Assembly: GCA_045649345.1 (NCBI GenBank)
Contig: JAZRPS010000018.1
Coordinates: 75,499-139,498 of the forward strand
DNA: 64,000 bases
Source of the DNA: Candidatus Enterousia sp.
GTDB lineage: Bacteria > Pseudomonadota > Alphaproteobacteria > Rs-D84
Reading direction: 5' to 3'
In this document: one piece after another, positions 11,316 through 62,181 of the stretch
Numbering within the stretch: the stretch's first letter is position 1
Layout: every line of letters starts with the position of its first letter
Notes under the pieces: generated by a model
Database searches by the model: none
The model's input: only the letters and a program-made list of their open reading frames with translations
Told to the model about the DNA's origin: nothing
Made by a program: the position numbers and the translations under genes

Positions 11316-11657
11316 TTATATACATGCCTCATACGTATAATATTCCCCTGTATCTTTTATCAAGAATCTGTGCGATGGCACATCTGGCGCACAACCATTT
11401 GGGACAACATTTACATAAATAACACCCTGTTCTTGAATCAAATCTGCAATATTAACCTGTGACACAACAGACGCAAAAACAGTATTTGCATCTTGAATTT
11501 TAAATATCTCTAAATCTTTTGTCAGTGGACATTTTAACAAATAATCACCATCTGCGCCCGTAATAATTTTTTCACAAACTGTACCCATCACAGATTCTGC
11601 ATTTGCATTAAAAACACCCGATAAAACACAAAACAAAGCAACTAAAAACTTTTTCAT
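11316..11657 (-). CDS. Hypothetical secreted protein
   Basis: Start at the internal Met MKKFLVALFCVLSGVFNANAES (Sec signal) preceded by a GGAGGAGG RBS; the rest is unrecognised. Confidence 0.5.
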   Translation of the reverse strand: MKKFLVALFCVLSGVFNANAESVMGTVCEKIITGADGDYLLKCPLTKDLEIFKIQDANTVFASVVSQVNIADLIQEQGVIYVNVVPNGCAPDVPSHRFLIKDTGEYYTYEACI

Positions 11658-11668
11658 GCATTCCTCCT

Positions 11669-11807
11669 CCAAAAACTTGGCACGCCCTACAGGATTGTAA
11701 ATTCCCATCTTCGCTTTCGCTCAATGGGCCCCTTTCGCCTACGGCTCGAACCTGTGACGGCTCTCATCCTTTGTCCGCGCCAAAAACTTGGCACGCCCTA
11801 CAGGATT
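11669..11807. repeat. Tandem partial duplicate of the tRNA-Arg 3' region: two 28-bp direct repeats (11669-11696 and 11780-11807) flank an 83-bp insert whose first 50 bp (11697-11746) is a conserved core also found at tRNA-Ser
   Basis: ccaaaaacttggcacgccctacaggatt occurs twice. On the tRNA strand the insert reads ...gtcACAGGTTCGA[50-bp core]AATCCTGTAGGGCGTGCCA. This is a tRNA-Arg T-arm/acceptor copy split inside the T-loop. Confidence 0.85.
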
Positions 11808-11865
11808 CGAACCTGTGACCTGCAGATTAGAAATCTGATGCTCTATCCAGCTGAGCTAAGGGCGC
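11789..11865 (-). tRNA. tRNA-Arg (anticodon TCT)
   Basis: GCGCCCTTAGCTCAGCTGGATAGAGCATCAGATTTCTAATCTGCAGGTCACAGGTTCGAATCCTGTAGGGCGTGCCA folds as a clean cloverleaf with anticodon loop TTTCTAA. Confidence 0.9.
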
Positions 11866-11882
11866 ACACTATGTATTCTACA

Positions 11883-13154
11883 CTATTTTTTTTGAATTTC
11901 AAGTCCCAGGTTTTCTGGGGTCAAGACACCAATCGCAGACAATATTGCAAAATATGCAGAAATCCGGGCATGTTTGGCACGCGTATGCGCAACCCGGGAA
12001 TTCAATAGTTCTTGTTCCGCGTTTAACACATCCAAAACCGTACGACGACCGCGTATTTGTTCATCACGGATACCATTCAAGGCCAGCTTATTTGCATCAA
12101 TACTGGCCCGTGTCGCAGATATTGCATATTCCTGCGCCTGATATACATTCCATGCCGACCGTAAATTTTCAATTATCACACGACGTGCATTTATTGTTTG
12201 TTCTTGAATACCCGCAACAGTTGCACGAACCTTGTCCGCATTGGCAAATGCATTACCTTTGTCATACAATGGAACCTTTAAATAAACACCAACACGACTG
12301 TCACGAATATCATCTAAATATGGTACATCGTCTATCTGTTGTATCGAACCACGCACATCAACTGACGGCAATATTGATTTATATGCAACCGTTATATTTG
12401 CACGTGCGGTTTCTTCTTGTGCAGTCAATGCACGCAATATTGGATGATTTCGCAGCGCACCTTGTTCCGCACTATCAATATCATCAGGAAACAAACCTGA
12501 TACAGGCGCCAAATTGACATCTGTCCATTTGCAATCAATATCACCATAAATTCGCCGAAATGTTTCCAGCGCATTCTCATACTGGGCCCGCGCATCCACA
12601 ACATGATAGTTCGCCATTTCCAGACGCGCAGATGCCTGGGAAACATCTGTTCGTGTCAACATACCAACCGATTGCCTGTCACGAACAAAATTATAATATT
12701 CTGTTAAAACACGCTGATTATTTTCATTCAAATATAACACCTGTTTCGCATTTAAAACCTCTATATACGCATTTATCGCGGACATAAACACGTCCTGCTG
12801 TGTTGCGTATAAACTTGCCTGTTGTGCAACTAAATTATTCTTTGCACCTTTATATCGGGCAAAATTCGCCCCACCCTGGAACAAAGTCTGTTGAAATTCC
12901 AGTCCATATTGCAGTGGCGAATAATCAAACGTTTCGCCTAAAACCTTGGTTCGTGCAACGCCTGCATTACCAGACAGCCCCAAATACGGCTGAAATTCTG
13001 TTGTTGACGCGCGCACATCTGCCTGGGCCACCTCAACTGCACTGCGTTCCTGGTTAATAACAGGGTTCAAATCATATACATATTGCAATGCCGAATACAT
13101 GTCTGCATTTGCCACACATGGACACAAAAATATAAATAAAAACATCCTCTTCAT
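11883..13154 (-). CDS. TolC-family outer-membrane efflux protein
   Basis: 423 aa with a signal peptide and the TolC/OEP two-repeat architecture; last gene of the exporter operon. Confidence 0.75.
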   Translation of the reverse strand: MKRMFLFIFLCPCVANADMYSALQYVYDLNPVINQERSAVEVAQADVRASTTEFQPYLGLSGNAGVARTKVLGETFDYSPLQYGLEFQQTLFQGGANFARYKGAKNNLVAQQASLYATQQDVFMSAINAYIEVLNAKQVLYLNENNQRVLTEYYNFVRDRQSVGMLTRTDVSQASARLEMANYHVVDARAQYENALETFRRIYGDIDCKWTDVNLAPVSGLFPDDIDSAEQGALRNHPILRALTAQEETARANITVAYKSILPSVDVRGSIQQIDDVPYLDDIRDSRVGVYLKVPLYDKGNAFANADKVRATVAGIQEQTINARRVIIENLRSAWNVYQAQEYAISATRASIDANKLALNGIRDEQIRGRRTVLDVLNAEQELLNSRVAHTRAKHARISAYFAILSAIGVLTPENLGLEIQKK

Positions 13155-13169
13155 ATTGTTCCTCCGTAT

Positions 13170-14261
13170 CTATAACGTTGTTTTCCATCTGCGCAGCGCA
13201 ATCAACCATATCACAGCCCCTGCCCCCAGCATTGCCGACGCGTGTTTTGAAAAATAAATCCAATCCGGTCCCTTTAACATAATATTCCGCACCAAATACG
13301 AATAGTGACTTAATGGATTTATATAACTTATCCAGCGTAAAACAATTGGCATATTTTCCGTTGATATAATTGCCCCTGACAGCATCAACGCCAAGAATGC
13401 CACAATAATCAATCCTAACATCGCCTGTTGCTGTGTATGCGTATACGTTGACAGCCAAACACCAATTCCACACGCCGGCACACAAAACACCAAAAAAGAC
13501 AGCAAAAACATTAACCCCGACCCTGCAAATGGCGCACCAAAAACAGCCATGCCAACAATAACAACGCTTAACATAACAACGAAAGAAACCAAGACATACG
13601 GAACAACCTTGCCCAACACAATATCATACTTTGAAATCGGCGCTGAAATCAGCGTTTCCATTGTGCCTGTTTCTTTTTCCTTGGTTATTGATATGGACAC
13701 CAGTATCAACAATGCTAAAAACACCAAGATAGACACCATTGACGGCACCATAAAAAACTTAGTATTTAACTGAGGATTAAATAATATTCGCAAATTAAAA
13801 TCTATCGGAGACTTTATTTGTGTATTTGTCATATCCGCCAATGTTTTTGTTATGATTGCACGCAGATACGCCTCTATACTATGCGCCTTTAATATATTCA
13901 TAGAATCAACAAGTATTTGAATTTCACCATCGCCACGAACCAAGGCGCGCGTTAAACCACCATCTGGCGCAATTATTGCAACATCTGCATGTCCGCCCTG
14001 AACCATATCAACAGGATCGCGTCCCATATCGTTTACAGGCACAAAAAAACCAGTACCCAATGCATCATTATAAATACGACTCATAACAGAATCATTTGGC
14101 ATATTTTGCATTACCAAACGTAAATTTGTTGCCTGAAAGGTAATTGCCCCCGACAACAATACCATCTGAACCACCGGCATTATCAAGACCGCCATCATCA
14201 ATATCGGATCACGCAGCAATGAAATCATTTCTTTCTTAAAAAATCCCAACAAAACCTTCAT
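13170..14261 (-). CDS. ABC-2 family transporter permease (YbhR/YbhS-like)
   Basis: 363 aa with an N-terminal TM, a large periplasmic loop and a C-terminal cluster of TM helices. Confidence 0.7.
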   Translation of the reverse strand: MKVLLGFFKKEMISLLRDPILMMAVLIMPVVQMVLLSGAITFQATNLRLVMQNMPNDSVMSRIYNDALGTGFFVPVNDMGRDPVDMVQGGHADVAIIAPDGGLTRALVRGDGEIQILVDSMNILKAHSIEAYLRAIITKTLADMTNTQIKSPIDFNLRILFNPQLNTKFFMVPSMVSILVFLALLILVSISITKEKETGTMETLISAPISKYDIVLGKVVPYVLVSFVVMLSVVIVGMAVFGAPFAGSGLMFLLSFLVFCVPACGIGVWLSTYTHTQQQAMLGLIIVAFLALMLSGAIISTENMPIVLRWISYINPLSHYSYLVRNIMLKGPDWIYFSKHASAMLGAGAVIWLIALRRWKTTL

Positions 14262-15382
14262 TCCAGCGACCTCTTAAACCGAAAGACACAAAACACCAAT
14301 ATAATTAATGCCTGAAATGCTAATACCGCATACAACCACCATATATCTATAAAAAAACTGCCTTTTAAAAATTGATCACGTGTTAAATCCATATAAAATC
14401 GTGCAGGAAACAACGACGAAACAACTTGATAGCCACGGCTCATATATTCAATTGGGAAAACAAATCCAGATAATATAACCGTCGGCAACAAACCTATTAT
14501 TGCGGCATATTGAATTGCAACCTCTTGCTTTTTAGTTGAAACAGAAATCAACAACCCAATCGCCAGATAACCCAATATAAACAACCATGTTCCTAAAATT
14601 AATTGCCAATACGAACCGACAAACGGCACACCAAATACAATACGCGCGATAAAAAACACCAAAACAAAGCCTATAAAACTAAGTATTGCATATGGCGCAA
14701 CCTTGCCCACAATAATATCCAAGCGCGTTGCTGGCGTAGACAACAACATTTCCATCGAACCTCGTTCCCACTCACGACATATTGTCAATGTGGTCAACAT
14801 TATTGCCACCAGTGCGATAATCACTGCACTTAACCCAGGCACCGCAAACCAGCGTGAATTTAATTCTGGATTAAACAAATATCTAATTTTATACGATGGA
14901 TTTTGAACAACCGCCCCCACAGGAATATCCAAAACTTTAAAATATGCATTATTATTTATTGTTGCCAGATAATTCGAAACAGATGAAATTGATGAACTCT
15001 CTGTTCCATCAACCAAAATTTGAACTGCGCCATCGCCACGCCCCAAAACATCTTTTTCGAAATCTGGCGGAATAATCAGCCCAACACGCGCCACACCCGA
15101 CACAATATCATCAAATATGCTTTCTGGATTATCAACATCATACGGTTTGAAATAATTAGAACTGCCAAATGTTTCAATTAATTTTCGCGATGCAAATGAT
15201 TTATCTGCATCAGAATACGCCAGTCGAATCGACTTTATATTAAATTCAATTGAACTGCCCAAAATCAAAACAATCAACAATGGCAACATCAGTGCCATCA
15301 TCAACGTAAACGGATCGCGAAATATGTGCTTAAATTCTTTGGACAAAATTGCACGCGTACGTCGCCACGAAAAGACCGTCAT
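14258..15382 (-). CDS. ABC-2 family transporter permease (YbhS/YbhR-like)
   Basis: 374 aa, paralogous to the downstream permease; overlaps the neighbouring genes by 4 nt at each end. Confidence 0.7.
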   Translation of the reverse strand: MTVFSWRRTRAILSKEFKHIFRDPFTLMMALMLPLLIVLILGSSIEFNIKSIRLAYSDADKSFASRKLIETFGSSNYFKPYDVDNPESIFDDIVSGVARVGLIIPPDFEKDVLGRGDGAVQILVDGTESSSISSVSNYLATINNNAYFKVLDIPVGAVVQNPSYKIRYLFNPELNSRWFAVPGLSAVIIALVAIMLTTLTICREWERGSMEMLLSTPATRLDIIVGKVAPYAILSFIGFVLVFFIARIVFGVPFVGSYWQLILGTWLFILGYLAIGLLISVSTKKQEVAIQYAAIIGLLPTVILSGFVFPIEYMSRGYQVVSSLFPARFYMDLTRDQFLKGSFFIDIWWLYAVLAFQALIILVFCVFRFKRSLE

Positions 15383-16290
15383 CTGTTTTGCCCCTCAACC
15401 AATTGAACAAAAACATCCTCTAATGACGGTTGAATTTGCTCTATTTCCCAATCTGCCCTCAACAGATTTAACTGATACGAAACAGGGACATCTTCTTTAA
15501 AGCGCAAATGAAAATCGCGTCCATACGGTTGCCAAATATCGACCAATGCCATATCAGGTGCTTTTGCTTTACCATGCCTGGGACGCAATCTATATAAACC
15601 ATTTACAAATGTTGTACGTTTTAATTCCGACGGCGTATCAATTGCAATCAATTCACCAGCACGCATCAATGCGATACGATTACAATTTTCTGCTTCGTCC
15701 ATATAATGCGTGGTCACAAATATAGTCTTTTTATCTTCTGCCAATTTTTTTATCAAGAACCAAAATCGTTGACGCGCAACAGGTGCAACACCTGCAGTCG
15801 GCTCATCAAGGAATACAATTTGCGGATCATGCAACAACGCAACGCACAAGGCAACTTCCTGCTTTATACCCCCCGGCAAATTTTTAACCAAAACATTTAA
15901 TTTTCTATCAAAACCGATAAAATCCAATAACCTTTCACGTCGTTTTACATACATATCGCTATCAAGTCTGCGCAACGCAGCTGCAAAATCAAAATTTTCT
16001 TTGACCGACAGCCCATCATACAGCGTAAATCGCTGGGACATATATCCAACTTTCTGTTTTATTATATTTTCACGTCCTGCGATAAAATTTTCACCATCTA
16101 TTTCTACATCACCTGCGCTGGCTAGCAACAGTCCGCACAAAACACGTATTGTCGTCGTTTTACCTGCACCATTTGCCCCCAAAAAGCCAAAAATTTCACC
16201 ACGCGCGACATCAAAAGACACATTCCGCACTGCATAAAAATCGCCAAAACGCACAGACATGTTCTTAACACGAACAATTGCATTTTTCAT
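15379..16290 (-). CDS. ABC transporter ATP-binding protein
   Basis: Walker A GANGAGKTT, signature LPGGIKQ, Walker B FLDEPT. Confidence 0.8.
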   Translation of the reverse strand: MKNAIVRVKNMSVRFGDFYAVRNVSFDVARGEIFGFLGANGAGKTTTIRVLCGLLLASAGDVEIDGENFIAGRENIIKQKVGYMSQRFTLYDGLSVKENFDFAAALRRLDSDMYVKRRERLLDFIGFDRKLNVLVKNLPGGIKQEVALCVALLHDPQIVFLDEPTAGVAPVARQRFWFLIKKLAEDKKTIFVTTHYMDEAENCNRIALMRAGELIAIDTPSELKRTTFVNGLYRLRPRHGKAKAPDMALVDIWQPYGRDFHLRFKEDVPVSYQLNLLRADWEIEQIQPSLEDVFVQLVEGQNR

Positions 16291-17021
16291 TCTCGTATTC
16301 CCCCACGTGACGAAAATAATTCATCAAAATTTCGACTATTGTATTTCTGTAATAAATTTCCAGGCGCCCCATGTGCCAAAACGTGTCCATATTCCATTAA
16401 AACAACCGCTGTACAACGTTCTGCCTCGTCCATATATGCAGTAGACATCAACACCAAAATCCCATCAGAGACTGCATTATGTAATAAATCCCAAAATTCA
16501 CGTCTACTAATCGGGTCAACACCATTTGTTGGCTCGTCTAATAACATAATTTGTGGCGACCGTAATAATGCACAAATCAACCCCAACTTTTTATACATTC
16601 CACCAGACAATTCGCCGGCAGGCCTATCGATAAATTTATCCAAACGTGCCAAATGAAGCAATTCTGCCTTTTTATGCCGAAAATCATTGTCATTGATTCC
16701 ATAAAGTTTTCTAAAAAAATCCAAATGTTCTGCCACAGACAAATCAGAATATAAACTTTGGCTTTGTGGCATGTATGCAATATGTTCCTGAATTTTATCA
16801 AACAAAATAGGCATACCATTTTCATGATATTGTACAGCCCCCGAATTTGCACGCATTAAATCCAGCATTATACGAAACAACGTTGTCTTACCAGCCCCGG
16901 CAGGTCCAATAACACCATACAAATTACCACTTTTAAAACGCATAGACACATCATCCAACGCCAAAATATCTTTAAAGCGTTTTGAAACATTTGTGACGTG
17001 AATTTCGATATTATTTTTCAT
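16287..17021 (-). CDS. ABC transporter ATP-binding protein
   Basis: Walker A GPAGAGKTT, signature LSGGMYKK, Walker B LLDEPTNGVD. Confidence 0.8.
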   Translation of the reverse strand: MKNNIEIHVTNVSKRFKDILALDDVSMRFKSGNLYGVIGPAGAGKTTLFRIMLDLMRANSGAVQYHENGMPILFDKIQEHIAYMPQSQSLYSDLSVAEHLDFFRKLYGINDNDFRHKKAELLHLARLDKFIDRPAGELSGGMYKKLGLICALLRSPQIMLLDEPTNGVDPISRREFWDLLHNAVSDGILVLMSTAYMDEAERCTAVVLMEYGHVLAHGAPGNLLQKYNSRNFDELFSSRGGIRE

Positions 17022-17826
17022 TTGGCATCAATGTACTTTCAATTGTCATACCAGATTTCAAAATCAAATCAGGATTTTCAAATTGCACCTTTATACCATA
17101 TACCAATCGCGTACGTTCTTCACGTGTCTGAACATTTTTTGGTGTAAATTCTGCCTGCTCGCTAATTTTAATAATACGTCCCAAAAATTGCATATTTTCT
17201 GCTTCTGGCAAAAAACCAATAACTTCCTGTCCAACATTCAATTTATGCAGCATAGAATATGGGACATAAAAATAAGCCCATATATCATAGGGATTTGCCA
17301 ATGAAACTAGCACTGTTCCAGGCGCAACAATTTCGCCAACCTGACGAAATTTTGTGACAACAATGCCATTTATTGGCGACAATATATTACACCAACTTAG
17401 CTTTAAGTCATTATCTTGTTTATTACGTGTTAATACGTCATATTCTGCCTGTGACAAATGCCCACGTTCTAATAACTTGGTTGCCCTGTCATAATCACTA
17501 TCGATTTGTCGCGCTAAAATTTTATATGCATCACACGACATTTTCATTAACGGTTGTTTAACAGATACATTATCCCCCTCTATAACAAACACATCTGAAA
17601 TATCCGATGCGACACGCGACGTCAAAGTCACCTTGGTTGTTTCCAACGTTCCTGCAAAAACAAATGGTCTTTTCTTAACAAAATAATGTATAACCAGACC
17701 AATAATTATGGCAATTGTTATAACAACAAAAGTCCACACAAAAATTCGTTTCCATTTTGTATTCATATACAAAGTATGCCAAAAAAATCCCGACATTTCG
17801 CCGGGTATAAATTCATAAATAGACAT
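17011..17826 (-). CDS. HlyD-family periplasmic adaptor / membrane fusion protein
   Basis: N-terminal TM followed by a coiled coil and a beta-barrel (YbhG-like); first gene of the exporter operon. Confidence 0.65.
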   Translation of the reverse strand: MSIYEFIPGEMSGFFWHTLYMNTKWKRIFVWTFVVITIAIIIGLVIHYFVKKRPFVFAGTLETTKVTLTSRVASDISDVFVIEGDNVSVKQPLMKMSCDAYKILARQIDSDYDRATKLLERGHLSQAEYDVLTRNKQDNDLKLSWCNILSPINGIVVTKFRQVGEIVAPGTVLVSLANPYDIWAYFYVPYSMLHKLNVGQEVIGFLPEAENMQFLGRIIKISEQAEFTPKNVQTREERTRLVYGIKVQFENPDLILKSGMTIESTLMPNEK

Positions 17827-22122: not shown

Positions 22123-22360
22123 TTATCCAACCACCGCAACATAAAAATAAAATGCCCAAAACGGGCATTTAATTTTTATAGCGGATGGTGAGGGATTGTA
22201 AATTCCCATCTTCGCTTTCGCTCTATGGGCCCCTTTCGCCTACGGCTTCGAACCCCACGCAACTTCGTTGCTCATCCGGGTGTTCTTATCCAACCACCGC
22301 AACATAAAAATAAAATGCCCAAAACGGGCATTTAATTTTTATGGCGGATGGTGAGGGATT
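22123..22360. repeat. Tandem partial duplicate of the tRNA-Ser 3' region: two 75-bp direct repeats (22123-22197 and 22286-22360, 1 mismatch) flank an 88-bp insert that starts with the same 50-bp core (22198-22247) seen at tRNA-Arg
   Basis: Each repeat contains the tRNA 3' 19 nt plus 56 bp of flank, including the gcccaaaacgggc terminator hairpin. On the tRNA strand the insert reads ...gcgtGGGGTTCGAA[core]AATCCCTCACCATCCGCTA. Confidence 0.85.
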
Positions 22361-22431
22361 CGAACCCCCGGTGGAGTTGCCCCCACAACGGTTTTCAAGA
22401 GCGTCGCATTCGACCGCTCTGCCAACCATCC
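22342..22431 (-). tRNA. Class II tRNA with long variable arm, most likely tRNA-Ser (anticodon TGA)
   Basis: GGATGGT...CTCTTGAAAACCG...GGGGGTTCGAATCCCTCACCATCCGCCA has a 7-bp acceptor stem, a T-loop and a long variable stem. The cloverleaf could not be fully folded by eye. Confidence 0.7.
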
Positions 22432-22568
22432 GAAACTATACACGCCGGCGGTTCTTTCAAACCGACGGTTTTGGTGTTTCACATGACATTGTCATGCTCA
22501 CACTCCACTTCGCTGGCGCTTCGTAGTCAAGACCGCTCATCTCAACACGCTCTGCCAACCATCCGAAA
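22415..22568. repeat. 21-bp direct repeat of the tRNA-Ser 5' end (22415-22435 within the gene; 22548-22568 as an upstream fragment) separated by 112 bp
   Basis: cgctctgccaaccatccgaaa appears twice, covering tRNA positions 1-17 plus 4 nt of flank. The spacer contains a catgacaatgtcatg palindrome and a GATGAGCGGTC motif resembling the tails of the 3' inserts. Confidence 0.8.
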
Positions 22569-22577
22569 GTATATTCA

Positions 22578-24507: not shown

Positions 24508-24723
24508 TTATCTCTGGTCGGGGCGACAATGAGTAAATTTGCCAAGTATCAAACGCAGGCAAATTGTCACGAATGCCACGCAGATTTATCACATTTTGTG
24601 ATAAAGCGAGTGAAACGTTCGAACCCGACAAAAGGATTTTGTCGTTTGAATCCACAGTTCCACCAAAATAAACAAAAATACCGCATTAACTGCGGTATTT
24701 TTGTTTATCTCTGGTCGGGGCGA
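24508..24723. repeat. 19-bp direct repeat of the tRNA-Pro 3' end plus flank (24508-24526 and 24705-24723) flanking a 178-bp insert
   Basis: ttatctctggtcggggcga occurs twice. On the tRNA strand the insert carries a T-arm-like GTCGGGTTCGAAC, then ~95 nt ending ...caaatttactcattg, then TCGCCCCGACCA. It also contains the bidirectional hairpin taccgcattaactgcggta. Confidence 0.8.
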
Positions 24724-24788
24724 AAGGATTCGAACCTTCGACATCTTGGTCCCAAACCAAGCACTCTACCAGACTGAGCTACACCCCG
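24712..24788 (-). tRNA. tRNA-Pro (anticodon TGG)
   Basis: CGGGGTGTAGCTCAGTCTGGTAGAGTGCTTGGTTTGGGACCAAGATGTCGAAGGTTCGAATCCTTTCGCCCCGACCA folds as a clean cloverleaf. Confidence 0.9.
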
Positions 24789-56174: not shown

Positions 56175-56212
56175 GTCAGAGTCCGGAGTTCTACCATTAA
56201 ACTATGCCCCAA
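56175..56212. repeat. 38-bp direct repeat, copy 2: a 5'-half fragment of tRNA-Gln (pseudo-tRNA fragment)
   Basis: Identical to 53407-53444; 2.73 kb separates the two copies. Confidence 0.9.
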
Positions 56213-56346
56213 TGCCCGCCTATTATATGCATCACGAATACATTTTGCAAGCAGAAAATTTAACACTTTTTACCCCCCCACACACAAAAACAATATTGAC
56301 AAATTTTATTATTGTGCTATACTCTGCCCATAAAAAGGCGCACAAT

Positions 56347-59713: not shown

Positions 59714-61576
59714 TTGTATTATATTTATTGTGTGTGGGCAAGATATAGAATTTTTATCACATCACTTATATGTGCAACAGCAATTTGCGCACCTGTTCAC
59801 GCACAAAACTGCAACAGCGAAGTATACCGACTTTATCACCCAGACAAATGTGACAAATTCGTAAATTCAACCATAAAAAAAAGCGCGATTATTACTGGTT
59901 CTGCCATTGGATTGGTCGGTGGCGCAATCGTATTGTTCGGCAATACGTCATCGGATTCATCTTCTGACAACGGCACACCACAAGCATTACAACCAACCGC
60001 ATCAACATATGACCATGTCGGCGCCGATGTCGATATCGCCAGTATCAATCGGATAATCCAAGACCACGAATATTCTAAAAACATAAACCAATATAACGAA
60101 ATTCGTTTGGCATATTCTTTAGCACGTGGCTATACAGGATTAGGCAGTACAATTGCGGTTCTCGATTCTGGCAAAAACACATGGCACGGCGGAAATGTTG
60201 CATATTTCGCGTCTGGTCAAATCGCACCAAACGCGACTGTAAATTCATACATGGTATCTGATCGCGACGGAAACTTTATGCCATTTAACGAAATTGCAAA
60301 TGTTATTGAATCTGCAAACGGATCAAATATTTACAATTTCAGTTGGGCAATGGACAAACCCGCCACACAAATAAAGTCACGAACACAACTGGAACGCTTG
60401 ACCAGTGTAAACTTTATAAATTCATTAACAAATGCTGCCACACAAAACGATGCAATCTTTGTTTGGGCAGCAGGCAACGAATATCGCACACAACCAAACG
60501 CGTTGGCAGCAATGCCAAATGTTATCCCAGAATTACAAGGTCATGTTGTGAACGTCGTCGCATGGGACAGCGTAACAGGCGCATTGGCCGACTTCAGCAA
60601 TTCATGTGGCGTCACAATGAATTATTGCATAACCGCCCCAGGCACAAACTTAACAACGCCACAATCATCAGAAACACTGAACGGCACCAGTTTTGCTGCC
60701 CCAATCGTATCATCTGCTATCGCAGTAATACGCGAAGCATTCCCATACATGAAATCCACAGAAATAACACACTTACTATTCACAACTGCACGCGACCTGG
60801 GCATCGCCGGCATTGACGAAACATACGGTCACGGAATGCTGGACCTGGAACGTGCAACCCGCCCCGTTGGCACGCCACTGGTGCCATTATCAGATGGCAC
60901 GACCGTCAACCTGACCCAGGCACGCGTTGGTTCTTCTATTGGCAACCAAATAAAATCCAAAGATATAAAATTTGCCTTTGTTGATTCGTATGGCCGCGCA
61001 TTTGAAACGTCACTGAACAACAACATAAAAATACAGAACCGCAGCATTGGATTCGAACGCCTGCGCGAACACAACACCCCCCAGGCAAAAATCGGAAAAA
61101 TCACATTTGGCATAAAACAAAGCGACCTGCTGATGGCAGACGGTTTTTTACAATCCAACACACGCAACACCATGACATTCATCAGATATGATGATAAAAT
61201 CCAACTTGGCAACACGGAATTATTCCAACAGACGACATTTGGTTCAATGAACCCACGCCCAACACCCGAATCAATGATTTCTGGGTTTTTTAACGTATAC
61301 ACAGCATCTATTTTCATTGGCGCACGTTATAATGACCTAAGTTTCAGCATCGGCATACCAGACACAATTGTTGGCGGCAACGCGCACCTGAATATACCAA
61401 CAGGACGCACCACATCCGGCGAATATACATTCCGCGGCGCAACCATTGATTTAACAAATCATGACCCCACACTGGAATACAACGCAACATATAAATTTGT
61501 GACAGCCGGCTTTGTTGACAATCCATACGGCACAGACGAATTTTACATTTTGGGGCGCGGTCGCCTAAAATTTTAA
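59714..61576 (+). CDS. Subtilisin-like (S8) serine peptidase with probable C-terminal autotransporter beta-domain; atypical Asp/His spacing
   Basis: Signal peptide, then VLDSG, AAGNEY and GTSFAAP motifs. The only nearby His (TWHGG) lies 7 residues after the Asp. The C-terminal ~250 aa has alternating beta-strand character and ends ...RGRLKF. Confidence 0.55.
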   Translation: MYYIYCVWARYRIFITSLICATAICAPVHAQNCNSEVYRLYHPDKCDKFVNSTIKKSAIITGSAIGLVGGAIVLFGNTSSDSSSDNGTPQALQPTASTYDHVGADVDIASINRIIQDHEYSKNINQYNEIRLAYSLARGYTGLGSTIAVLDSGKNTWHGGNVAYFASGQIAPNATVNSYMVSDRDGNFMPFNEIANVIESANGSNIYNFSWAMDKPATQIKSRTQLERLTSVNFINSLTNAATQNDAIFVWAAGNEYRTQPNALAAMPNVIPELQGHVVNVVAWDSVTGALADFSNSCGVTMNYCITAPGTNLTTPQSSETLNGTSFAAPIVSSAIAVIREAFPYMKSTEITHLLFTTARDLGIAGIDETYGHGMLDLERATRPVGTPLVPLSDGTTVNLTQARVGSSIGNQIKSKDIKFAFVDSYGRAFETSLNNNIKIQNRSIGFERLREHNTPQAKIGKITFGIKQSDLLMADGFLQSNTRNTMTFIRYDDKIQLGNTELFQQTTFGSMNPRPTPESMISGFFNVYTASIFIGARYNDLSFSIGIPDTIVGGNAHLNIPTGRTTSGEYTFRGATIDLTNHDPTLEYNATYKFVTAGFVDNPYGTDEFYILGRGRLKF

Positions 61577-62181
61577 TCCCATTCTGGCATTATCTCATTT
61601 TTTTCTATAAAACGTGTCAGCGTATCACGATGCACGTGCAATCTTCGTGCAATTTCATATTTACTGCGCCCTGCCCCCAATTTTTGTGCGATATATTTTT
61701 CACGTCCACACAGCTTAGAATTACTTAAACAACCACGAGGTCGCCCGATAACCTTGCCTTCTGCCTTTACACGCGCCAGGGCCTCTTTGGTACGTTGGGA
61801 AATTAAGTTTCTTTCAATTTCCGCGGACAAACCAAATGCGAACGCCAAAACCTTGCTGGTTATATCACTGCCCAGGCGATAATTATCTTTTATTGTCCAA
61901 ATTCTTGCCCCTACATCCATACAATGGTGCAATATACTCATAACCTGCAACAAATTTCGCCCCAATCGTGATAATTCTGATGCAATAATCATATCATCTT
62001 TTTTTAACTTTTTGATTAATCGCCCTAGCTTTCGTTTTTCTAAATCCGTTGTTGACGATATTTTTTCAACAATCCAGCTATCTATAATCAAATCTTGTTT
62101 TTCACAAAACTTTTCAATTTCAAACCGTTGATTTTCTGTATTTTGATGTTCTGTTGACACACGAATATAACCATAAATCAT
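61573..62181 (-). CDS. Serine recombinase (resolvase/invertase family)
   Basis: MIYGYIRVSTEHQNTENQ catalytic Ser motif plus a C-terminal HTH. Its stop overlaps the stop of the S8 gene by 4 nt (convergent). Confidence 0.8.
   Translation of the reverse strand: MIYGYIRVSTEHQNTENQRFEIEKFCEKQDLIIDSWIVEKISSTTDLEKRKLGRLIKKLKKDDMIIASELSRLGRNLLQVMSILHHCMDVGARIWTIKDNYRLGSDITSKVLAFAFGLSAEIERNLISQRTKEALARVKAEGKVIGRPRGCLSNSKLCGREKYIAQKLGAGRSKYEIARRLHVHRDTLTRFIEKNEIMPEWD

Follow-up and report, generated by a model that had tools for sequence, protein, structure and literature searches.

tRNA genes are the classic landing sites of islands and prophages, and the elements that use them are usually of kilobase scale and carry an integrase. 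Remnants that resemble cis-mobilisable elements are among the known remnants of tRNA-targeting integrative elements, and in 2002 Williams reportedly distinguished a class of tRNA attachment sites with a T-loop sublocation. Short insertions in tRNA genes are also found in the Thermoproteales, where transposed archaeal tRNA introns lie at non-canonical positions including the T-loop; introns of this kind disrupt functional tRNA genes, and an archaeal endonuclease acts in their splicing at bulge-helix-bulge motifs. Integration is typically recognised by the partial tRNA copy that it leaves (PMC9897764), and tycheposons, which show tandem accretion, leave degenerate remnants with partial tRNAs (bioRxiv 10.1101/2020.12.28.424599). 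Tyrosine integrases can use T-loop attachment sites, an example being that of mycobacteriophage Ms6. Its attP core is 26 bp long and extends from the T-arm, with the T-stem 5' half, through the T-loop to the tRNA 3' end, and strand exchange probably takes place in the 7-nt T-loop (PMC1762012).

We analysed a 64-kb stretch of DNA (the window, meaning the whole stretch) in which very short inserts lie behind several tRNA genes. Their host is an uncultured, AT-rich gut or rumen alphaproteobacterium, and the protein neighbours of the window are from uncultured Alphaproteobacteria of ruminant or gut metagenomes. The features of the three loci are listed in Table 1. Behind the intact tRNA-Ser(UGA) gene there is a 75-nt direct repeat with copies that are 74/75 identical (99%), the sole mismatch being CCA to CTA in the downstream copy. 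As an earlier sequence-only reading of this DNA had described, the repeat consists of the final 19 nt of tRNA-Ser and 56 nt of flank, including a terminator-like hairpin, which is present twice at this locus. On the minus strand, the 88 nt that separate the two copies read, in this order, GAACACCCGGATGAGCAACGAAGTTGCGTG, GGGTTCGAA and GCCG...AATTTAC, after which the next repeat opens with AATCCCTCACC. This interval is made up of a 29-nt filler (GAACACCCGGATGAGCAACGAAGTTGCGT), then GGGGTTCGAA, then a 49-nt core (GCCGTAGGCGAAAGGGGCCCATAGAGCGAAAGCGAAGATGGGAATTTAC), and it is followed by the repeat, which starts from A58 (AATCCCTCACCATCCGCTA). At tRNA-Arg(UCU), which is also intact and on the minus strand, a repeat of 28 bp encloses 83 bp of non-coding DNA, and the ribosome-binding site of the next gene comes directly after the second repeat copy.

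The 50-nt core pattern occurs exactly twice in the 64 kb (22197-22246 and 11696-11745), both times on the tRNA strand, and shuffled sequence never matched it (0/100 shuffles). The Ser and Arg cores are identical at 49 of 50 positions. As the left copy of the T-arm reaches A59 at Ser and A58 at Arg, and the right copy resumes at A58 in both, the insert is 49 nt long with AA (Ser) or A (Arg) on both sides. The sequence-only reading was thus right that one and the same core splits the T-loop of partial tRNA 3' copies at both loci. It had further stated that two different tRNAs were hit at the identical loop position; the position (A58/A59) is indeed the same, but the functional tRNAs were not hit, as both are uninterrupted and it is the spare copy that is split. 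The common, specific mechanism that it proposed is a reasonable one to suppose, because the same A58/A59 position was used at two tRNAs, because empty sites exist and because the core is not a generic intergenic repeat, both of its copies in the window lying at T-loops.

Table 1. Position of the tRNA genes, repeats, fillers, pseudo T-arm halves and cores in the window.
Feature	Position	Strand	Remarks
Functional tRNA-Ser(UGA)	22342..22431	-	ARAGORN, Rfam (tRNA, 47.8 bits)
Promoter-like site of tRNA-Ser	22637-22608	-	further upstream of the gene
Ser direct-repeat copy 1: last 19 nt of tRNA from A58 + 56 nt of 3' flank, terminator 22313-22333	22286..22360	-	no differences between the window and strain L015
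Ser left filler 'X' GAACACCCGGATGAGCAACGAAGTTGCGT with GCAAC-GAA-GTTGC hairpin	22257..22285	-	
Ser pseudo T-arm 5' half GGGGTTCGAA = tRNA-Ser T-stem 5' strand + T-loop 54-59	22247..22256	-	
Core, Ser copy, 49 nt GCCGTAGGCGAAAGGGGCCCATAGAGCGAAAGCGAAGATGGGAATTTAC	22198..22246	-	49/50 identical to Arg copy
Ser direct-repeat copy 2: displaced 3' end from A58 (CTA) + 56 nt of flank, terminator 22150-22170	22123..22197	-	
tRNA-Pro(UGG)	24712-24788		
Analogous element behind tRNA-Pro(UGG)	24508..24711	-	counterparts L008 113-310, L030 1091-1320
Functional tRNA-Arg(UCU)	11789..11865	-	ARAGORN, Rfam
Arg direct-repeat copy 1 (28 bp): 19 nt of tRNA 3' end + AGTTTTTGG	11780..11807	-	
Arg left filler 'X' (21 nt) CGCGGACAAAGGATGAGAGCC	11759..11779	-	20/21 kept in L029
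Arg pseudo T-arm 5' half GTCACAGGTTCGA	11746..11758	-	tRNA-Arg match 13/13, through A58
Core, Arg copy	11697..11745	-	L029 48/50, L025 49/50 identical
Arg direct-repeat copy 2: displaced tRNA 3' end + 9-nt flank	11669..11696	-	

The Arg insert also has a consequence for annotation. Over window 11658-11708, a 130-aa ORF (protein P0121) is called from an ATG within the core (GAAGATGGG), while the true start of the 113-aa secreted protein is at 11657; the 130-aa call is an annotation artefact due to the insert. A 5.9-kb HlyD/ABC-2/TolC-like efflux operon (11883-17826) lies between the gene of a LysR-family (HTH_1) regulator and tRNA-Arg. In L015 (1662-7563) and in L016 this operon directly adjoins the MFS transporter gene, which in the window is the neighbour of tRNA-Ser, and in L008 (10390-10440) it is cut down to the last codons of the outer-membrane gene. 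Either close relatives differ by extensive rearrangement of this region or there are chimeric contigs among the MAGs.

A third, analogous element follows tRNA-Pro(UGG). Its order is terminator module, filler, pseudo T-arm GGGTTCGAA, a cassette of ~92 nt and the repeat of the tRNA 3' end (TCGCCCCGACCAGAGATA). The filler contains an inverted T-loop-like GGATTCAAAC and a hairpin, and in relatives another hairpin stands in the place of this inner one. The cassette is different from the Ser/Arg core and holds an operator-like palindrome, TTATCACA-N-TGTGATAA; we also noted a possible outward promoter in it. In L008-type relatives the cassette is 96% identical, in a surrounding alignment of ~85%, and in L030 its right half differs (is swapped). 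The terminator modules, which seem to travel with the element, are ordered A...B in the window, C...A in L008 and A...C in L030. Judged from these arrangements, such shuffling of modules would be the expected outcome of repeated integration and repeat-mediated deletion at one tRNA. Repeat lengths at the tRNAs are 28 bp (Arg), 75 bp (Ser) and 13-17 bp.

Synteny between window and relatives is lost precisely at three tRNA genes, those for tRNA-Arg, tRNA-Ser and tRNA-Pro. The segment 22578-24508, from the Pro scar to the tRNA-Ser promoter, varies by lineage: in the window it contains a 427-aa Hsp70/MreB-like ATPase and a 99-aa ORF, in L030 an unrelated 171-aa ORF, and in L008-type genomes 5.8 kb of housekeeping genes. 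The leader of tRNA-Ser (22432-22575, minus strand) carries an insertion of ~135 nt between the promoter-like site and the gene that L030 does not have. This insertion is bounded by CCGTTGGT/CCGTCGGT and contains 21 nt that perfectly repeat TTTC and positions 1-17 of tRNA-Ser, after which come the scrambled tRNA-like pieces GAGCGGTC and AAAACCGT. At tRNA-Gln(CUG) (segment 53371-56230), the promoter-proximal 5' half of the gene (to the anticodon loop) together with the upstream region is repeated at 56175-56230. The repeat sits beside the ancestral neighbours of the gene (compare L031), and the full tRNA is 2.7 kb off. The 2.7-kb segment holds three ORFs, which by appearance encode signal-peptide (secreted) or surface-type proteins and are without family matches, and no recombinase. 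The segment has the look of a cargo-only island that took the place of the 5' half of the tRNA. Since the duplicate of the 5' half brackets the island, tRNA-directed integration operates in this lineage.

The same structures were found in related genomes. The Ser structure is also present in L015, with identical filler and core, and the Arg structure in L025 and L029. As these are independent assemblies, the two structures are not assembly artefacts. Relatives at a greater distance have empty sites. At Arg, L008, L026, L027 and L028 read tRNA-Arg...CCAAGTTTTTGG|AGGAGG-ATG, and at Ser, L030 has tRNA-Ser and one homologous terminator and flank, without the duplicate and without the core. Gene order in L030 is that of the window, with tRNA-Pro ... 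tRNA-Ser and then an MFS transporter gene adjoining tRNA-Ser. Gain and loss cannot be polarised from these sites, since a clean site is also what recombination between the repeats would leave behind. Short-read contigs of related strains end precisely at or within the tRNA repeats: L015 starts inside tRNA-Ser, L025 starts inside the T-loop of tRNA-Arg, and L032 and L033 (1-70) begin at the Ser repeat. L032 opens with TTCGAATCCC joined to a flank of the distal type (copy 2), which could be an element-free allele of the same species or a collapsed repeat.

The two copies of the Ser repeat differ in their variability. The tRNA-proximal copy is the same in the window and in L015, the sole other assembly that covers it, whereas the distal copy has five variable sites among the window, L015, L032, L033 and L016, and these include CCA, the T-stem strand and the terminator stem. 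The distal pseudo-3'-end with its split T-loop is therefore dispensable and decaying. At Arg, L029 belongs to a lineage ~12% divergent and has flanks about 83-88% identical to the window, and 81 of the 84 nt of its insert are identical (3 changes). The adjacent CDS, by comparison, is 82.9% identical (third codon positions, 73%) and the upstream intergenic DNA 47%. L025, of the same species as the window, differs from it at 2 of 84 nt in the insert vs 7/699 elsewhere, which gives no sign of extra constraint. Because similarity is high between lineages and constraint is absent within the lineage, recent horizontal spread fits these alignments better than purifying selection, although the numbers are small.

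The ends of the core, GCCGTAGG... and ...AATTTAC, do not form an inverted repeat. The predicted fold consists of a CCCAU/AUGGG stem around GC-GAAA-GC and a weak GCC/GGC hairpin. The GNRA hairpins and the CCCAT/ATGGG stem that the sequence-only reading had pointed out are thus predicted, but they are marginal against shuffled sequences: z is -1.7 for the core, with 8/200 shuffles folding as well, and -2.0 and -1.2 for the whole inserts, and the opposite strand of the core folds no better than random. All of the observed core substitutions are outside the predicted CCCAT/ATGGG and GC-GAAA-GC pairs, and these pairs show no compensatory change or covariation. The Rfam search that the same reading had suggested gave no match to the core: scans of the Ser, Arg and Pro loci with the Rfam 15 covariance models, at gathering and at permissive thresholds (E up to 10 at the Ser locus and up to 5 at the Arg locus), gave only tRNAs and chance-level matches. 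An exact 19-mer of the core had 7 matches in GTDB representative genomes (one genome per species) and 8 in JGI metagenomes, all of them unrelated and attributable to chance. Two words of the core and two of the tRNA-Pro cassette had 0 matches in viral contigs (IMG/VR), and blastn of the core against phage and plasmid records returned nothing meaningful. Diverged relatives of the core would escape the word scans because these require exact words. As far as such limited (exact-word and blastn) searches go, the core appears to be lineage-specific. Several other candidates were rejected. A conserved small ORF is contradicted by the extra A that at Ser breaks the 26-codon frame present at Arg; GGATGAG and GAGCCGTA, judged by eye as parts of a hammerhead, group II domain V, K-turn or box C/D RNA, lack the partner strands, and Rfam is silent on them; and derivation of the core start from a decayed tRNA-Arg 3' end, and of the core end from a decayed T-stem half, gave p = 0.13 and worse.

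The fillers to the left of the pseudo T-arm were compared in the same way. GGATGAG, which the sequence-only reading took for a motif common to the tails of the Ser and Arg inserts, is not significant (shuffle test, p ~0.39). The Ser filler resembles the reverse complement of the variable-arm/T-stem region of tRNA-Ser, to a degree seen in 0/300 shuffles, and it can fold back on the pseudo T-arm by pairing of GAAC(A)CCC with the downstream GGGGTTC. A hairpin of this type, formed by filler and pseudo T-arm, was tried as a candidate feature and set aside; it is present at Ser and in two Pro versions and absent at Arg. At Ser and Pro, this pairing can rebuild the T-loop duplex. Homology of the Arg, Ser and Pro fillers through GRAC-N3-4-GGAT was not significant in pairwise shuffle tests and is a lead only; the regular expression was built post hoc from these loci and matches only them in ~150 kb. 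The resemblance of the filler to a shrunken 5' part of the host tRNA was likewise not significant.

The features of the inserts were also set against those of described classes of mobile and structured sequences. As in integrative elements, direct repeats of a tRNA 3' segment bracket the insert, an intact tRNA stands at one end and the empty sites at Arg (L008, L026-L028) and Ser (L030) show the unoccupied state; an integrase gene in or next to the 83-88-bp non-coding insert is lacking among the 30 window ORFs scanned. At Ser, the duplicated 56-nt flank is homologous to the native flank of the element-free L030. Of the marks of MITE/DDE elements, we found neither terminal inverted repeats nor a target duplication of fixed length, the duplications being 28 and 75 bp, or 1-2 nt if the core alone is counted. 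For REP/REPIN sequences, two copies in 64 kb, both at T-loops, and a weak 5-bp stem are a poor match, and no Y1 transposase gene was present among the window ORFs scanned. A tRNA intron, whether of group I or of the archaeal bulge-helix-bulge type, does not agree with the uninterrupted tRNA-Ser and tRNA-Arg, and the Rfam scans returned no intron family; as for described structured RNA families (Rfam 15), no covariance model matched beyond the tRNAs. The sequence-only reading had advised looking for an integrase or transposase; none was detected with Pfam or PHROGs among the 30 window ORFs scanned. The only recombinase among these ORFs is a small serine recombinase of 202 aa (Resolvase N-terminal domain; 61573-62181, minus strand). 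It is ~40 kb away, and no link between it and the tRNA inserts was established.

What has to be explained is directly observed: the anatomy of the loci, the presence/absence polymorphism, the decay of the distal copy, the near-identity across lineages and the same core at the same T-loop position. We favour, while giving it slightly less than an even chance of being correct, a lineage-specific family of miniature, non-coding, non-autonomous insertion elements of tRNA 3' ends, or trimmed remnants that are still spreading. The mechanism of this reading is one that we infer throughout. Read along the tRNA strand, each locus consists of the intact tRNA, 9-56 nt of the 3' flank of that tRNA (including any terminator) and a short filler, followed by a copy of the 5' half of the host T-stem with the T-loop to A58/A59, a cassette, and a second tRNA 3' end from A58 with its flank; the cassette is the 49-nt core at Arg and Ser and another sequence at Pro. 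The unit would have been placed by site-specific recombination aimed at the T-loop and the 3' part of tRNA genes, by a recombinase that would be encoded elsewhere than among the scanned window ORFs. It would be tolerated because a working tRNA and terminator are kept upstream. The insert is probably selfish or neutral DNA and not a functional RNA. Some features speak against this reading. The 30 scanned ORFs contain neither integrase nor transposase, an insert of 83-88 bp is too small to circularise as a free element, the repeat lengths differ by locus (28, 75 and 13-17 bp), and the core is at only two loci within the 64-kb window. The Ser repeat takes in 56 nt of native flank, which is predicted by duplication of the target in place and not by a classical attP block. 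Moreover, the core splits a pseudo T-arm that is contiguous in a classical T-loop attR, so the core would be either a second event or an unusual design of attP.

Because the flank duplication at Ser and the split pseudo T-arm misfit textbook integration, they keep alive another reading, the closest to the sequence-only one, which we regard as rather unlikely: the mobile unit would be the 49-nt core alone, a tiny insertion with the T-loop site TTCGA|A as its target. The spare T-arm would then have come from a prior partial tandem duplication, or from an old att scar that was later trimmed, and only insertions into a spare T-arm would survive, because a core in a working single-copy tRNA gene would be lethal. 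This agrees with the precise boundaries on both sides at two unrelated tRNAs, with the 1-2-nt A/AA overlap, with pseudo T-stem halves that are specific to the host tRNA (Arg 13/13, Ser 10/10) and with Arg and Ser fillers that are not significantly related; the in-place duplication of native flank at Ser also suits a duplicated target better than a segment carried by the element. It does not agree with the window's partial 3' tRNA duplicates, 3/3 of which have a T-loop-adjacent insert and 0/3 an intact spare T-arm, so that duplication and insertion look like one event. The core is also without terminal inverted repeats and too small for the known miniature elements derived from IS200/IS605 or of DDE type, there are only two copies of it, and no mobilising enzyme is known. 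A bolder proposal, which we consider speculative and somewhat less probable again, is that the core (perhaps with the fold-back filler) represents a miniature mobile element of a new kind, for which a single phosphodiester in the T-loop DNA (A58/A59) of any tRNA gene would be the target. A putative recombinase or nickase would move the element, recognising either the T-arm hairpin or a single strand folded so as to mimic it. The gene would be rescued by a duplication of the tRNA 3' end, which each insertion would either bring about or require.

Two further readings are less likely because of the points that count against them. One, which we think improbable, is that the insert encodes a structured RNA under selection, a tRNA-like minihelix with a 49-nt hairpin module in its T-loop that is cotranscribed with the tRNA. 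The insert is indeed far better conserved between the window and L029 than the adjacent coding and intergenic DNA, every core substitution spares the predicted pairs, and the Arg insert lies within the leader of a co-transcribed gene. Yet the fold barely beats shuffled sequences and no compensatory change accompanies it, Rfam families do not match it, the extra constraint is absent within the species, and the insert is missing from equally close relatives; besides, the Ser insert is behind a terminator and its 3' half (CCA, T-stem strand) mutates freely among strains. To a reading without any mobile element we assign an equally small chance. Here, replication slippage or unequal exchange would have produced local tandem duplications of tRNA 3' regions with templated filler at the junctions, and ectopic gene conversion, by way of the T-loop sequence common to both loci, would have copied the core from one to the other. 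The likeness of the Ser filler to the reverse complement of the adjacent tRNA-Ser recalls snap-back templated insertions, the tRNA-Ser leader also has a partial 5' duplicate (the one bounded by CCGTTGGT/CCGTCGGT), and rearrangement breakpoints are abundant at tRNAs in the region. But the homology available for conversion is just GGTTCGA plus AATCC (7 + 5 nt), three loci have this multi-part architecture in common, and the Arg insert is nearly identical in a lineage ~12% divergent.

The known phenomenon to which these loci belong is tRNA-associated integration scars, and what we describe is a real, specific and unusual variant of it. The unit is <100 bp long, it is found at a single-nucleotide-precise T-loop position of two different tRNAs, and it is nearly identical in lineages ~12% apart. 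If mobile, it would be the smallest tRNA-directed element described and would provide a handle for finding a recombinase that recognises the T-arm. In practical terms, such inserts break assemblies at tRNAs, create false ORF starts and mark rearrangement breakpoints in these gut alphaproteobacterial MAGs. T-loop-precise copies genome-wide and a matching recombinase would sharply raise the interest of the system.

Finally, we compared the inserts with the described systems. They share with archaeal tRNA introns the recurrence of a short, near-identical sequence at one structural position in different tRNAs; unlike those introns, they occur in a bacterium and leave the functional genes whole, and what they interrupt is a fragment in decay. 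Like MITEs, REPs and elements derived from IS200/IS605, they are short, non-coding and hairpin-containing, with near-identical copies at more than one locus, and the core contains GTAG followed by palindromic segments, which we take to be loosely reminiscent of REP heads. They differ from these elements in the absence of terminal inverted repeats, of a fixed target duplication and of a transposase among the scanned ORFs, and in that the two copies in 64 kb are both at one precise T-loop position. The attachment site of Ms6 is similar in that the breakpoint here is also in the T-loop, with a host-matched 5' half of the T-stem on the element side. In Ms6, though, the T-arm is contiguous in attP and in the scar, whereas here its halves are 49 nt apart and no integrase was detected among the 30 window ORFs. 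The scars of integrative elements (genomic islands) and tycheposon remnants resemble these loci in the direct orientation of a complete and a partial tRNA and in the working tRNA that is kept. Further points of likeness are the presence that varies among relatives, the decay of the displaced copy and, at tRNA-Pro, the signs of repeated events. In contrast to such scars, only 83-88 bp, without integrase or cargo, lie between the repeats, the Ser repeat runs 56 nt into native flank, and a cassette common to two different tRNAs divides the scar-side pseudo T-arm.
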